In this document: positions 2,710-52,928 of the stretch, one piece after another
How the letters are laid out: every line of letters begins with the position of its first letter
How positions within the stretch are numbered: position 1 is the stretch's first letter
Assembly: GCF_016903815.1 (NCBI RefSeq)
Contig: NZ_CP069973.1
Direction: 5' to 3' (one strand)
DNA from: Escherichia coli
GTDB taxonomy: Bacteria > Pseudomonadota > Gammaproteobacteria > Enterobacterales > Enterobacteriaceae
Length of the DNA stretch: 64,000 nt
The notes under the pieces: generated by a model
What the model was told of the DNA's origin: nothing
What the model saw: the letters and a program-made list of their open reading frames with translations, nothing else
The model's database searches: none
Program-made: the position numbers and the translations under genes

Positions 2710-3765
2710 GTGAAAAGTGCAATGACAAGCTCTCCGCTGCGGGTCGCGATCATAGGCGCGGGCCAGGTGGCGGATAAGGTTCATGCTTCGTACTACTGCA
2801 CCCGCAACGATCTGGAACTGGTGGCTGTCTGTGACAGCCGCCTTTCCCAGGCGCAGGCGCTGGCAGAAAAATACGGGAATGCATCCGTGTGGGACGATCC
2901 GCAGGCCATGCTGCTGGCGGTGAAACCTGATGTGGTTAGCGTCTGCTCACCTAACCGTTTTCATTACGAACATACCCTGATGGCGCTGGAAGCGGGCTGC
3001 CATGTGATGTGCGAAAAACCGCCCGCCATGACGCCAGAACAGGCGCGGGAAATGTGCGATACCGCGCGCAAACAGGGCAAGGTGCTGGCCTACGACTTTC
3101 ACCATCGTTTTGCGCTCGATACGCAACAGCTGCGTGAACAGGTGACCAACGGCGTTTTGGGAGAGATTTACGTTACCACCGCCCGCGCCCTGCGTCGTTG
3201 CGGTGTTCCCGGCTGGGGTGTCTTTACCAATAAAGAATTGCAGGGCGGTGGCCCGCTGATCGACATCGGCATTCATATGCTGGATGCGGCGATGTATGTG
3301 CTGGGTTTTCCAGCGGTGAAAAGCGTGACTGCGCATAGCTTTCAAAAGATCGGCACGCAAAAGAGCTGCGGTCAATTTGGCGAGTGGGACCCGGCAACTT
3401 ACAGCGTCGAAGATTCGCTGTTTGGCACCATTGAATTTCATAACGGCGGCATTCTGTGGCTGGAAACGTCATTTGCACTCAACATCCGCGAACAGTCGAT
3501 TATGAACGTCAGCTTTTGTGGCGATAAAGCAGGGGCGACGCTGTTTCCGGCGCATATCTATACCGATAACAACGGTGAGTTAATGACGCTGATGCAACGG
3601 GAAATGGCAGACGACAACCGCCATTTGCGCAGTATGGAAGCCTTTATCAATCACGTACAGGGCAAGCCCGTGATGATAGCCGACGCCGAGCAGGGGTACA
3701 TCATCCAGCAACTGGTGGCGGCGTTGTATCAATCCGCAGAAACAGGGACGCGTGTGGAATTATGA
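2710..3765 (+). CDS. ycjS: Gfo/Idh/MocA-family oxidoreductase (D-glucoside 3-dehydrogenase)
   Basis: 351 aa with a GTG start. The N-terminal Rossmann motif is VAIIGAGQVA. The sequence is recognised as YcjS. Confidence 0.92.
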   Translation: MKSAMTSSPLRVAIIGAGQVADKVHASYYCTRNDLELVAVCDSRLSQAQALAEKYGNASVWDDPQAMLLAVKPDVVSVCSPNRFHYEHTLMALEAGCHVMCEKPPAMTPEQAREMCDTARKQGKVLAYDFHHRFALDTQQLREQVTNGVLGEIYVTTARALRRCGVPGWGVFTNKELQGGGPLIDIGIHMLDAAMYVLGFPAVKSVTAHSFQKIGTQKSCGQFGEWDPATYSVEDSLFGTIEFHNGGILWLETSFALNIREQSIMNVSFCGDKAGATLFPAHIYTDNNGELMTLMQREMADDNRHLRSMEAFINHVQGKPVMIADAEQGYIIQQLVAALYQSAETGTRVEL

Positions 3766-49352: not shown

Positions 49353-49772
49353 TTAAGAGGCTTTTTGTTTTTTCTTTCGTGCTAACTCTTCGTAAATTGC
49401 ATTGTACTTCTGTTTTTTCTCCTCAAGAGTTTTTAAAAGTTCATCTGTCTCACTGTCAGGGAGCTCGTCCAGAAGGTCAATGATGATTTTTTGTCTTGGA
49501 TTTAACTCCTGATAGAAACGTATCTGTCCACTTTCTTCTGTATCCTCTCCCAAAAGATAGGTTGGTGTTGTTCCAATGAGTGTTGCTAATTCCCTTAATT
49601 TCTCTCGGCGAGGAATTGTTTCACCATTAAACCATTTGCTAACCGCTTTTGGTGTTAATTTCATTCGACGGGCAATTTCTGCCTGCCTTCCATGTTGTTC
49701 ATAACCAGCGTTTTCACAGGCTAGCGCAAGCCTACTGGCGAACTCTTTACGCGCTTTATCTTCATGAACCAT
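49353..49772 (-). CDS. CI-like prophage repressor (XRE HTH, no S24 peptidase domain), in the racR position
   Basis: 139 aa. The HTH is GRQAEIARRMKLTPKAVSKWFNGETIPRREKLRELATLIG. The C-terminus is an acidic/lysine-rich helical tail (..KTLEEKKQKYNAIYEELARKKKQKAS). I cannot confirm identity to K-12 RacR. Confidence 0.8.
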   Translation of the reverse strand: MVHEDKARKEFASRLALACENAGYEQHGRQAEIARRMKLTPKAVSKWFNGETIPRREKLRELATLIGTTPTYLLGEDTEESGQIRFYQELNPRQKIIIDLLDELPDSETDELLKTLEEKKQKYNAIYEELARKKKQKAS

Positions 49773-49851: not shown

Positions 49852-50106
49852 ATGAACCAGAAAACACTTGAAGATGTAATCAAAACTGTTCGCGTTTCTG
49901 TTGTGGCCGACGTTTGTGGTGTCAGCCAAAGAGCAATCTACAAATGGATGGATAACGGAAAATTGCCTCGCACAGAATATACCGGCGAAACAAATTACGC
50001 TGAAAAAATCGCTCATGCATCAAACGGATTATTTTCTGCCGATGCAATTTTAACTATTGGCAGAAATAAAACTACTACGAAAAAGCTGATGGGAGTTGAT
50101 TCATGA
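49852..50106 (+). CDS. Cro-like HTH protein (ydaS position)
   Basis: Start is set at MNQKTLEDVIKT (84 aa), with an SD (gaggg) upstream. The HTH is VADVCGVSQRAIYKWMDNGKLP. Confidence 0.75.
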   Translation: MNQKTLEDVIKTVRVSVVADVCGVSQRAIYKWMDNGKLPRTEYTGETNYAEKIAHASNGLFSADAILTIGRNKTTTKKLMGVDS

Positions 50107-50525
50107 AAATCAAGCATGAGCACATCGAATCAGTGTTGTTAGCCCTGGCAGCCGAAAAAGGGCAGGCGTGGGTCGCTAACGCAATTACTGAAGAATATCT
50201 GCGCCAGGGGGGCGGCGAATTGCCCCTGGTACCAGGCAAGGACTGGAACAATCAGCAGAATATCTATCATCGTTGGTTGAAAGGTGAAACGAATGCGCAA
50301 AGGGAAAAAATTCAGAAACTGATCCCTGCGGTTCTGGCAATTCTTCCTCGCGAGCTGCGTCACCGACTCTGCATCTTCGATACCCTGGAACGCCGTGCAT
50401 TACTGGCGGCACAGGATGCACTGAGTACGGCAATTGATGCGCATGATGATGCAGTCCAGGCCGTTTACCGTAAAGCACATTTCAGCGGCGGCGGTTCTCC
50501 TAGCGATTCTGTCGTAGTGCATTGA
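50103..50525 (+). CDS. ydaT: YdaT (CII-like / YdaT-toxin domain protein)
   Basis: 140 aa, MKIKHEHIESVLLALAAEKGQAWVANAITEEYLRQGGGELPLVPGKDW... Recognised as Rac YdaT. Coupled to the upstream gene by an ATGA overlap. Confidence 0.85.
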   Translation: MKIKHEHIESVLLALAAEKGQAWVANAITEEYLRQGGGELPLVPGKDWNNQQNIYHRWLKGETNAQREKIQKLIPAVLAILPRELRHRLCIFDTLERRALLAAQDALSTAIDAHDDAVQAVYRKAHFSGGGSPSDSVVVH

Positions 50526-50569
50526 TTGAAATTAATCGTACCGAACTGTTTTGTTCGGTATCAGTTAAA

Positions 50570-50590
50570 TGTAACGCTGCGAGCGTTACA
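50570..50590. repeat. Iteron 1: perfect 21-bp palindrome TGTAACGCT-gcg-AGCGTTACA
   Basis: Read directly from the sequence. It ends 13 bp upstream of the initiator-gene ATG and abuts the SD. Confidence 0.9.
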
Positions 50591-50602
50591 AGGTGAAAAC
50601 AA

Positions 50603-51391
50603 ATGGCTTCAAACTGGATAAAGCTCGAAGTTATTACGCCGGATAAGCCGGAAATATTCAGGCTTGCTGAGATTCTGAATATTGATCCAGATGCCGCATT
50701 AGGGAAAGTCATTCGCTTCTGGGCATGGGCGGATCAACAAATGATAGACGGTAACGCAGAGTGTAACGCTCGCGGCGTTACAAAAAGTGCAATAGATCGC
50801 ATCACTTTTATGGCTGGTTTTGCTGATGCGTTAATTCAGGTTGGATGGCTGGTCGAAACTAATGGTGTGTTGTCGCTTCCTAACTTTGAGCGCCATAACG
50901 GGAAAAGCTCTAAAAAACGGGCGGTTACAAACGAGAGAGTAACAAAAATACGAGAACTGAAACGAAAAGGTAACGCTGCCAGCGTTACAAAAACGGATCA
51001 AAAAGCGTTACCAGAGGAAGAGAAAGAGGAAGATATAAATACTTATCTCCCCCTAAATCCCCCTCGCCAAAAACGAGCGTCTAAAAAATTCGAACCGGAG
51101 GCTATCGAGCTGCCTGACTGGTTGCCGGAAACACTCTGGCATGAGTGGGTTCAGTTCAGGCAGGCATTGCGAAAACCGATTCGAACGGAGCAGGGCGCTA
51201 ACGGGGCGATACGGGAGCTGGAAAAATTCCGCCAGCAGGGTTTTTCACCTGAGCAGGTGATTCGACACAGCATCGCCAACGAATACCAGGGCTTGTTCGC
51301 GCCGAAAGGTGTTCGACCTGAGACGTTACTCCGACAGGTTAACACCGTCTCGTTACCGGATAGTGCGATCCCGCCAGGCTTCAGGGGGTAA
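50603..51391 (+). CDS. Replication initiator / replisome-organiser-like protein (ydaU position)
   Basis: 262 aa with an SD (aaggtg). It lies immediately upstream of the DnaC-like ydaV. The C-terminal segment (LPDWLPETLWHEWVQFRQALRKPI..) resembles DnaT/phage O-type C-termini. It contains iterons. Confidence 0.7.
   Translation: MASNWIKLEVITPDKPEIFRLAEILNIDPDAALGKVIRFWAWADQQMIDGNAECNARGVTKSAIDRITFMAGFADALIQVGWLVETNGVLSLPNFERHNGKSSKKRAVTNERVTKIRELKRKGNAASVTKTDQKALPEEEKEEDINTYLPLNPPRQKRASKKFEPEAIELPDWLPETLWHEWVQFRQALRKPIRTEQGANGAIRELEKFRQQGFSPEQVIRHSIANEYQGLFAPKGVRPETLLRQVNTVSLPDSAIPPGFRG
50761..50781. repeat. Iteron 2: TGTAACGCT-cgc-GGCGTTACA
   Basis: Same 21-bp format with one arm mismatch. 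A half-site GGTAACGC lies at 50749-50756. Confidence 0.9.
50969..50989. repeat. Iteron 3: GGTAACGCT-gcc-AGCGTTACA
   Basis: Same 21-bp format with one outer mismatch. Half-sites lie at 50921-50929, 50939-50944 and 51004-51011. A 21-nt pure purine run lies at 51013-51033. Confidence 0.9.
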
Positions 51392-51397
51392 CTGACC

Positions 51398-52144
51398 ATG
51401 AAAAATATTGCGACAGGCGACGTTCTTGAACGTATCCGCAGACTGGCCCCGTCACATGTAACCGCGCCATTCAAGACGGTAGCGGAGTGGCGCGAGTGGC
51501 AACTTTCCGAAGGCCAGAAACGTTGTGAGGAGATCAACCGTCAGAATCGTCAGTTGCGGGTGGAAAAAATTCTGAATCACTCTGGCATCCAGCCATTGCA
51601 CCGCAAATGCTCGTTTTCGAATTACCAGGTGCAGAACGAAGGGCAGCGATACGCGTTGAGTCAGGCGAAATCCATCGCTGATGAACTGATGACCGGGTGT
51701 ACAAATTTTGCGTTCAGCGGAAAACCTGGTACCGGGAAGAACCACTTAGCGGCAGCTATCGGGAATCGCCTGCTGAAAGACGGTCAGACAGTGATTGTGG
51801 TTACCGTGGCTGATGTTATGAGTGCCCTGCACGCCAGCTATGACGACGGGCAGTCAGGCGAAAAATTTTTGCGGGAACTGTGCGAAGTGGATCTGCTGGT
51901 TCTTGATGAAATTGGCATTCAGCGCGAGACGAAAAACGAGCAGGTGGTACTGCACCAGATTGTTGATCGCCGGACAGCGTCGATGCGCAGCGTGGGGATG
52001 CTGACAAACCTGAACTATGAGGCCATGAAAACATTGCTTGGCGAGCGGATTATGGATCGCATGACCATGAACGGCGGGCGATGGGTGAATTTCAACTGGG
52101 AGAGCTGGCGTCCGAATGTCGTCCAGCCAGGAATTGCGAAGTAA
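51398..52144 (+). CDS. ydaV: DnaC/IstB-like helicase loader ATPase
   Basis: 248 aa with Walker [11 protein letters not shown] and Walker B LLVLDEIG. Recognised as YdaV. Confidence 0.92.
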
Positions 52145-52166
52145 TTTTTACCGGGAGAAAAATTTA

Positions 52167-52928
52167 ATGGAGACTGTTTTTGACGTACTGAAAGCAATGG
52201 GAAAAGCCACATCCATAGAACTTGCTGCGCGACTTGATATCAGTCGTGAAGAAGTGCTGAACGAACTATGGGAACTGAAAAAGGCTGGTTTCGTTGATAA
52301 AAGCGCGTACACCTGGCGTGTGGCTGATAACAACGTTCAGCAGGAACAGCCAGCGCCGGCAGAACTGCCGGAAGAAACTACCACGGCAACAGTCGCGAAA
52401 ATTTCAGAGAGCGATTTAACTGCGACGATTGAACAACGTGGACCACAAACGGCGGATGAGCTGGCTACATTGTTTGGTACCACATCACGCAAAGTGGCTT
52501 CAACGCTGGCAATGGCAATCAGCAAAGGTCGTCTGCTTCGCGTAAATCAGGGCGGTAAATTTCGTTACTGCATACCGGGCGATAATTTACCAGCAGAGCC
52601 GAAAGCAGCATCGGTAGCGGAAACTGCTGGTAAGGCCTTTCCTCAGCCCGCAGGTGTTGCGTTACCAGTACAGGAGGCTGCAACACAGGAAGATATTAAA
52701 ACAGAAACTGTGGCGGACATTGTGCAGTCGCTGCCATCGTTTACTGAAACGCGAGCGGATGACCTGGTTTTACCATCACTGCATATGGCAAACCGCGAAC
52801 TGCGTCGGGCGAAAAATCATGTCCAGAAGTGGGAGCGTGTCTGCGCCGCGCTGCGGGAGCTGAACAAGCACAGGGATATTGTACGACAGATTACTGATTC
52901 TTCCCGCCATGTTGCATCGGAAAAGTGA
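52167..52928 (+). CDS. ydaW: Winged-helix phage protein (DUF1627-like), full-length form of K-12 ydaW
   Basis: Start is set at [43 protein letters not shown] (253 aa), with an SD (gggaga). In K-12 only an N-terminal fragment is annotated (from memory). Confidence 0.7.

Follow-up and report, generated by a model that had tools for sequence, protein, structure and literature searches.

Why should three copies of one long palindrome lie within and just ahead of a single prophage gene of Escherichia coli, and what are they for? The gene encodes a predicted replication initiator and is found in a 64,000-nucleotide (nt) stretch of contig NZ_CP069973.1 (RefSeq assembly GCF_016903815.1), which was analyzed as a whole and is called the window below. 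We consider it likely, with a probability of roughly 80%, that the region from 50.57 to 51.06 kb is the cis-acting replication origin of a Rac-family lambdoid prophage, situated within and just upstream of its own initiator gene. We read the region in this way because its DNA is conserved at the level of individual codons, because the motif covaries with the initiator, because the synteny of the replication genes is constant and because the junction between the two initiator domains falls right after a purine tract that follows the last site. The same lines of evidence support the suggestion, made in a preliminary description of this DNA, that initiator-binding repeats together with an asymmetric purine/AT tract form a lambda-like origin in the initiator gene. 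The proposed element is of a known kind, a lambda-type origin inside an initiator gene, here in a large and uncharacterised initiator family.

The palindromes stand out sharply from the rest of the window. When the pattern TGTAACGCT-N3-AGCGTTACA was searched for on both strands with up to three mismatches, exactly three matches to these 21 bp were found in 64 kb, as against 0.02 expected from 100 shuffles, none of which (0/100) reached three. They are the three palindromes reported initially, one perfect (site 1, 50570-90) and two with a single mismatch each (sites 2 and 3, 50762-82 and 50969-89), although the second had been placed one base too early, at 50761-81. The 7-mer GTAACGC, which makes up the half-site, occurs 20 times in the window compared with an expectation of 7.3, and eight of the 20 copies are confined to 50571-51011. 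Site 1 was said to abut the Shine-Dalgarno sequence of the initiator gene, and it does so literally, since its last base, A50590, is also the first base of AAGGTG (50590-95); from the end of the site to the A of the ATG (50603) is 13 nt, a position that makes a role of site 1 in autoregulation plausible. The two intragenic palindromes encode the peptides NARGVTK and NAASVTK, as had been noted.

Less of the initial account of the half-sites survived. Of the four that were listed, those at 50751-57 (GTAACGC) and 51005-11 (GCGTTAC) are exact and are kept in relatives, but the other two are not conserved: GTAACA at 50940-45 fits the loose pattern used at the time while its codons vary among relatives, and the stretch at 50921-29 reads GCGGTTACA, which has an extra G and is no match. 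Neither are the palindromes the widely spaced single iterons that they first appeared to be, as they form the cores of two to three clusters of half-sites phased at 11-12 bp. In cluster B the order is GAAACGA (50959-65), GTAACGC (50970-76), GCGTTAC (50982-88), GCGTTAC (51005-11) and then purines (51013-33), the last of these being the 21-nt pure purine run of the preliminary description, which direct reading bears out together with the A/T-rich patch that follows it at 51034-48. The segment 51013-51048 has a GC fraction of 0.35 and a strong purine skew, and the purine tract stretch is both the GC minimum of the initiator gene and the site of its strongest purine skew.

Are these sites a peculiarity of one prophage? 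We compared 80 loci, one genome per species, from the Enterobacterales, Pseudomonas, other Gamma- and Betaproteobacteria, Planctomycetota and Verrucomicrobiota including Akkermansia. Seventy-two of these loci have the palindrome GTAACGC-N5-GCGTTAC (≤2 mismatches) at +148/+160, counted from the start codon, most have it again at +337 to +412, and only four matches at the same stringency fall beyond the zone from -400 to +700 across all 80 of these related 6-kb loci. The density of TAACG/CGTTA follows suit, rising from a background of about 0.05 per 50 nt to 2.5 per locus at +100 to +200 and about 4 per locus at +250 to +450. A palindrome of the site 1 type lies 32 to 44 nt before the ATG in nine of 12 Enterobacterales loci, where it forms an island of identity in otherwise unalignable intergenic DNA; it is absent from the loci outside this order.

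Selection on the DNA itself is visible in the codons. In a codon alignment of 69 non-redundant genes (<88% nucleotide identity), whose hosts have GC contents of 43-67%, the codons of site 2 are GGT in 93%, AAC in 100%, AGC in 100% and GTT in 94% of the genes, and those of site 3 are GGT (100%), AAC (100%), AGC (100%) and GTT (98%). In the terminal half-site alanine is GCG in 49 of 49 genes and leucine is TTA in 98% of 60 genes, hosts of 55-67% GC included, and the freezing runs on past this half-site into the GAA, GAG and AGA codons of the purine tract (AGA 100%). By contrast, where Gly, Val, Leu or Ser is conserved elsewhere in these genes, the top codon of the column reaches just 30-59%. Moreover, the motif is not tied to one peptide: the palindrome at the site 3 position is read as GNAxSVT in 41 of 54 copies and as VTxxAL in the remaining 13, while for GCGTTAC the counts are 83 for SVT and 49 for ALP. 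The two frames belong to different lineages. We conclude that the motif is non-random, local and under selection at the DNA level, independently of the protein code. By these sequence comparisons the two intragenic sites, the half-site at 51005-11 and the polypurine tract are conserved as DNA from the Enterobacterales to Pseudomonas, Planctomycetota and Akkermansia.

What is conserved is also an arrangement. When the loci were anchored on their last half-site, cluster B had a recurrent plan: between one and three half-sites that face left and are spaced by 11-12 nt, then the palindrome and, 12 or 23 nt beyond it, a single half-site facing right, which is followed by CC and a purine run; the consensus GCGTTACC at the terminal half-site was invariant in this alignment. 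Upstream of the site 3 palindrome, position -12 is taken in the relatives by GTAACGC, GAAACGC or CTAACGC, and position -24 often is as well. In 63 relatives the purine tract right after the last half-site, usually (GAGAA)n, has a median of 80% purine over 30 nt and is 60% AT versus 43% for the locus, which places it in the top 0.5% of locus 30-mers. Cluster A is more variable in its additions: 27 of the 69 non-redundant genes (~40%), all from outside the Enterobacterales, have a half-site 33 nt downstream of the palindrome, whereas in the enterobacterial genes a specific insertion of 12 nt (four codons) has instead given rise to the upstream half-site at 50751-57. TAACG stands at +149/+150 in the Enterobacterales loci of our set that bear the insertion (L006-L008, L010-L012, L014 and L015, but not L009).

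Which protein reads the sites? An answer is suggested by relatives in which the motif itself is different. The initiator family extends to epsilon15, to Stx phage TL-2011b and to CP2-like phages of Xanthomonas, and we assembled 80 epsilon15-clade loci from IMG/VR together with six named phages. In epsilon15, phiPSA1 and Cobetia phage Carin1 the palindrome near +344/+365 is GTCCGC-N7-GCGGAC, and epsilon15 and phiPSA1 have a second copy of the GTCCGC type at +65; the last GCGGAC of these two phages adjoins CC and then (AGAGA)n, while Carin1 is without a clear purine run. The change of motif also emerged from a de novo count of 6-mers in 78 distinct epsilon15-clade genes, in which GCGGAC was top or tied for top in 76 and the overlapping CGGACA was top in the other two. 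Most genes of this clade have six to nine copies of GTCCGC/GCGGAC per 480 nt (range 4-10), compared with 0-5, mostly 0-3, in the 1.4-3.0 kb of flanking DNA at each locus. Their sites again form two clusters, the first of them at +54 to +100 rather than +148, and right after the last copy there is a purine run of 17-38 nt, which is at least 23 nt long in 76 of the 78 genes. Two further variants occupy both positions elsewhere, GTAGAC/GTCTAC in Ralstonia phage Raharianne and GTCAC..GTGAC in locus L079, a metagenome-assembled genome (MAG) of the Rhodanobacteraceae. GTCAC half-sites were observed in two MAG loci in all, L079 and L074.

All half-sites of one genome thus change together and track the lineage of the initiator N-terminal domain, while C-terminal domains, partner genes and neighbors vary freely. 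Because the motif switches with the N-domain clade, and because the N-domain is the sole constant neighbor of the sites, the simplest reading is that the N-terminal domain of the initiator is the protein that recognizes them. Its first 115-120 residues have homologs at 30-75% identity that are fused to various C-termini; N- and C-domains recombine as modules, and the joint between them lies right after the purine tract. In nine of ten diverse loci the initiator is followed by the gene for a DnaB helicase, a lambda-P-like protein or a loader of the DnaC/IstB type (the downstream gene of the tenth is without a Pfam match), and given such helicase- or loader-type genes we take the protein to be the initiator of a replication module throughout the family.

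These observations can be assembled into a mechanism that we would propose for the window. Dimers of the initiator N-domain, which is predicted to combine a winged-helix-like fold with an invariant basic HNGxxAKxR helix, would bind the GTAACGC-N5-GCGTTAC palindromes, and further protomers would occupy the flanking half-sites, which keep a phase of 11-12 bp. The complex formed at cluster B (50959-51011) would adjoin the purine- and AT-rich tract at 51013-48, where the duplex would be opened. The DnaC-like YdaV would be recruited, with the host DnaB, by the C-terminal domain, which is encoded just after the tract as a mosaic module in its own right. Cluster A (50751-82) and the Enterobacterales-specific site 1 (50570-90) may serve as extra anchors, and site 1 possibly also in autoregulation.

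Several points weigh against this reading. The literature that we searched describes no binding, unwinding or origin function for any member of the initiator family: the text of the motif retrieved only unrelated primer matches, epsilon15 with iterons and ydaU with ydaV and replication retrieved nothing, ydaU alone no functional study, and oriJ with Rac no more than mentions of oriJ. Likewise, we found no annotated or published origin for epsilon15, Stx phage TL-2011b or the CP2-like phages of Xanthomonas. The sites are in two to three clusters 190-230 bp apart, with neither the compact array nor the helical phasing that lambda would lead one to expect (spacings between clusters ranged from 189 to 264 bp in steps of 3, and no helical phasing between them was seen), and the purine tract is only moderately AT-rich (~60%). 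The Rac prophage of K-12, which has a different ydaU allele, has been described as replication-defective after excision (PMC11014345). Finally, the covariation at clade level comprises few independent switches, approximately four, and an association between the variants at site A and site B (Fisher p = 1e-5) is confounded by phylogeny and was used as a hint only.

What else, then, could the palindromes be? The alternative to which we give most weight, while still finding it unlikely, is that they are regulatory operators only, through which the initiator or some other phage regulator represses or roadblocks the replication operon, the true origin being elsewhere. That site 1 shares its last base with the start of the Shine-Dalgarno sequence and is a conserved island in the unalignable intergenic DNA of Enterobacterales would suit an operator well, and intragenic roadblock sites are known in other systems. 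It is, however, precisely site 1 that does not extend beyond the Enterobacterales, while the clusters inside the gene, and the purine tract that abuts them, occur universally; no promoter-like site adjoins site 1; and regulation alone leaves unexplained why the last half-site should be joined in a fixed manner to a purine run of 17-39 nt, usually at least 20. The neighboring regulator, YdaT, can be set aside as the binder of the palindromes, because its published motif is a different one, TTGATT-N6-AATCAA (PMC9986795), and is found elsewhere in the window, at 50096-50113. Should the sites instead be bound by some other host or phage factor rather than by the initiator N-domain, this would agree with a fold search that places the N-domain in no characterised DNA-binding family. 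We think it improbable, as only the N-domain always accompanies the sites (C-terminal domains, downstream partners and upstream genes all vary), as the hosts span several phyla, which makes a shared host factor of this specificity unlikely, and as the motif switches with the N-domain clade and there are no DnaA boxes nearby.

Still less probable is that the palindromes act as hairpins in RNA or single-stranded DNA, as signals for mRNA stability, translational control of the initiator or priming. Each of them can form a 9-bp stem, and site 1 folds as RNA together with a hairpin at 50539-60, just before the Shine-Dalgarno sequence, at z = -4.1. Nevertheless, where the arms depart from consensus they do so asymmetrically in 87 of 88 positions and symmetrically in one, from which it follows that the sequence is kept and not the pairing; a search of Rfam gave no match at E ≤ 1; and unpaired half-sites of the same sequence flank the palindromes, with all sites in one genome sharing one motif. 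The least credible explanation, to which we assign next to no probability, makes the repeats a by-product, without cis function, of a recurring peptide, GNAxSVT, or of recent horizontal transfer. Both NARGVTK and NAASVTK are indeed repeats of this kind, and the N-domain conserves GNAxSVT, but synonymous positions are frozen only at the motif while other conserved columns are saturated with synonymous change, the motif is read in two frames that give different peptides, and it is also present in non-coding DNA at site 1, its coding copies falling in a low-confidence loop and a disordered linker. We regard the repeated-peptide and recent-transfer explanations as excluded because of this codon freezing, the two reading frames and the non-coding copy.

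The protein that would bind these sites (Table 1) has no Pfam family (E ≤ 0.01), no NCBIfam family and no PDB sequence match, although it carries all the invariants of the PHROG 2509/HNG-motif family (W5, W40, W42, H98-N99-G100, K104, R106 and R112). Its N-terminal part, aa 1-123, comprises a winged-helix-like domain with the basic helix; aa 125-150 are a disordered linker, and aa 139-262 make up a C-terminal domain that it has in common with K-12 YdaU. The fold search detected generic winged-helix similarity alone for the N-domain. In the AlphaFold model, which has a mean predicted local distance difference test score (pLDDT) of 75, site 2 encodes a loop of low confidence between helices (pLDDT ~60), and cluster B plus the purine tract (50959-51048) encode the linker, aa 119-149, with pLDDT < 50. 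According to the model, then, loop and linker are the places at which the protein is able to tolerate a sequence dictated by its DNA.

Table 1. Sites, tracts and genes of the candidate origin region (positions are those of the window).
Feature	Position	Strand	Description
Site 1	50570..50590		Perfect palindrome TGTAACGCT-GCG-AGCGTTACA; ydaT-initiator intergenic region
Initiator gene	50603..51391	+	262 aa; PHROG 2509 'replication initiation protein', E = 4.7e-88, residues 1-262
Half-site GTAACGC	50751..50757	+	12 nt upstream of the site 2 left arm
Site 2 (cluster A)	50762..50782		Palindrome TGTAACGCT-CGC-GGCGTTACA; encodes CNARGVT, aa 54-60, N-domain loop
Degenerate half-site GAAACGA	50959..50965	+	11 nt before the site 3 left arm
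Site 3 (cluster B core)	50969..50989		Palindrome GGTAACGCT-GCC-AGCGTTACA; encodes GNAASVT, disordered interdomain linker
Terminal half-site GCGTTAC	51005..51011	-	GTAACGC on the minus strand; followed by CC and the polypurine tract; encodes Ala-Leu-Pro
Pure purine tract	51013..51033	+	21 nt, (GAR)n; encodes EEEKEED; candidate DNA-unwinding or loader-entry element
AT-rich patch	51034..51048		TATAAATACTTATCT; between purine tract and C-tracts
C-tract pair	51049..51063	+	CCCCC-TAAAT-CCCCC; start of C-terminal module
ydaV	51398..52144	+	DnaC-like helicase loader; NCBIfam PRK12377 E = 6e-152, DnaC E = 2e-91; Pfam IstB_IS21

The initiator stands in a gene order that lambdoid immunity and replication regions typically show: first comes a minus-strand repressor gene (49353-49772), next a Cro/YdaS-like and a YdaT/CII-like gene (the latter at 50103-50525), then the initiator and YdaV, which is the presumed partner of the initiator C-terminal domain, and finally DUF1627 and DUF977 genes. 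The DUF1627 (ydaW-like) open reading frame (ORF), 52116-52928, overlaps the end of ydaV by 29 nt (52116-52144), an overlap that is also annotated at this junction in related phage records. The copy of the published YdaT operator of CP-933P at 50096-50113 (TTGATTCATGAAAATCAA) is a perfect one; it lies where the Cro/YdaS-like ORF ends and the ydaT-like ORF begins, the same position as that of the main operator OM in CP-933P. A copy with two mismatches at 50522-50539 overlaps the ydaT stop codon, just before the hairpin, although matches at this level are within chance for the whole window.

The hairpin itself, reported with a stem of 8 bp ahead of site 1, was confirmed on direct reading. It comes directly after the stop codon of ydaT, its pairing can be extended over 50532-50568, and the plus strand lacks a T-run. 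The hairpin might serve for processing or termination between ydaT and the initiator. We rejected it as part of the origin element because the other Enterobacterales loci do not conserve it. A promoter scan found no promoter-like site beside site 1, and the terminator-like calls in the region proved to be the palindromes themselves, read on the minus strand. At the other end of the element, the C-tract pair is possibly the right boundary of the origin. It looks like a further element at the level of the DNA because it is built of the rare proline codon CCC, and comparable C-tracts occur in seven other loci (L006, L008, L016, L027, L032, L066 and L087). Elements resembling C6..C6..G4-6 were seen in Enterobacterales, Pseudomonas, Pseudohongiella, Planctomycetota and one Ralstonia phage. 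An imperfect inverted repeat of 11 pairs at 51025-51054 (AGAGGAAGATA...TATCTCCCCCT) spans the end of the purine tract to the first C-tract and was flagged by the terminator scan on the minus strand.

How does the proposed origin compare with that of lambda? The AT-rich tract of the lambda origin is purine-rich on one strand. That origin is in the middle of gene O, where 19-bp inverted-repeat iterons lie beside the tract, and for unwinding no more is needed than the tract with its two proximal iterons (PMC7466680). The resemblance is considerable: in the window, too, the candidate origin is inside the initiator gene, where cluster B and the tract coincide with the coding sequence of an interdomain linker, its repeats have dyad symmetry and adjoin an AT-rich tract with one purine-rich strand, and the two domains of the initiator have been exchanged as modules between phages. 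As in lambda O and P, the N-domain of the window initiator would give origin specificity and the C-domain would be matched to a helicase-loading partner encoded just downstream. However, the window initiator has no sequence similarity to O and no match to Pfam Phage_rep_O, its half-site has a different sequence and its partner is DnaC-like rather than P. The layout differs as well, with two to three clusters 190-230 bp apart and half-sites phased at 11-12 bp instead of four to six adjacent 19-bp iterons, one of the clusters being in the coding region of the folded N-domain and, in Enterobacterales, another upstream of the gene.

The element had also been called oriJ-type, a term that holds as a positional analogy only. 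The prophage shares its family and gene order (racR/ydaS/ydaT-like, initiator, ydaV) with K-12 Rac, and the C-terminal 124 aa of the initiator are 81% identical to those of K-12 YdaU, the shared part beginning at aa 139, exactly at the purine tract. The N-domain of K-12 YdaU, in contrast, is an unrelated DUF1376 domain (by BLASTP and hhalign), and a check of the K-12 ydaU region for the motif, which the preliminary description had proposed, gave no palindrome at up to three mismatches in 7 kb of K-12 Rac. K-12 ydaU has repeats of its own in the linker-coding region, GTTCAAAC twice and GTTTGAAC once (3513-3576 in locus L001), followed by an A-rich tract, and C7-TAAAT-C7-G5 (3633-3656) at the same place as the C-tract pair of the window. 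We suggest the GTTCAAAC/GTTTGAAC repeats as candidates for the iterons of K-12 oriJ. To our knowledge oriJ has not been mapped to sequence resolution, and identity with the window element cannot be claimed. That K-12 has the same plan with other repeats supports the view that these origins are modular and matched to the initiator domain, and it means that the window element is not the K-12 oriJ sequence.

A relative by family, if not by motif, is Salmonella phage epsilon15, whose replication protein (AAO06105), like those of phiPSA1 and Carin1, has 30-33% N-domain identity and the same invariant W, HNG, K and R. The architecture of two clusters, the last half-site of which adjoins a (GAGAA)n purine run, is shared with the window; the half-site (GTCCGC/GCGGAC) and the location of the first cluster differ, and the epsilon15 record has no origin annotated. 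By analogy, the window element may also be likened to the origins of iteron plasmids, whose RepA/Rep_3-type initiators are winged-helix proteins, and to oriC, which has high-affinity DnaA boxes beside an unwinding element; in both a sequence-specific initiator acts at repeated sites beside an easily opened tract, and in its layout it resembles the strong anchor sites R1 and R4 of oriC, which are ~200 bp apart with weaker sites near them. It differs from both in having no tandem 17-22-bp direct iterons, its repeats being inverted or mixed and in separate clusters, and its initiator has neither a sequence match nor a significant fold match to Rep_3 or DnaA; DnaA boxes were not found near or within the region.

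Could the window then hold the first recognized example of a wider class? Such a class of phage and prophage origins would span phyla and would be defined by an initiator family that lacks a Pfam model and exceeds 6000 clusters (at 50% identity), by a fixed bipartite layout, by a cis-code that dictates part of the initiator sequence and by a junction, last half-site-CC-(GAGAA)n, that is more than an easily melted AT patch. The initiator, or its C-domain (often DnaT-like), would read this junction as single-stranded DNA in order to position helicase loading, much as at the DnaA-box/DnaA-trio of bacterial oriC. Taken as a whole this is a tentative proposal, and we think it rather doubtful.

The module is widely distributed. 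Many E. coli chromosomes, as well as three complete phage genomes that have been deposited (vB_EcoS-666R9 and relatives), contain its DNA at 100% identity; a record named 'phage Rac', in which the gene is called ydaU, is 94% identical; 678 of 5426 complete E. coli genomes carry at least 80% of a 1.1-kb query. With phmmer the initiator family was found to comprise 6411 clusters at E ≤ 1e-3 among 1.84 billion cluster representatives. Our analysis thus provides a concrete candidate origin for the replication module in about one-eighth of complete E. coli genomes, and it defines, together with its recognition code, a large initiator family that has been missed by current domain libraries and that uses at least four half-site variants (GTAACGC, GTCCGC, GTAGAC and GTCAC). 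It also offers a case in which a cis-element has constrained protein sequence over a very long evolutionary distance, which matters for annotation, for codon-based tests of selection and for the recoding of phage genomes. Prophages called 'Rac' carry at least two non-homologous origin/initiator specificities, a fact that bears on incompatibility and recombination between resident prophages.

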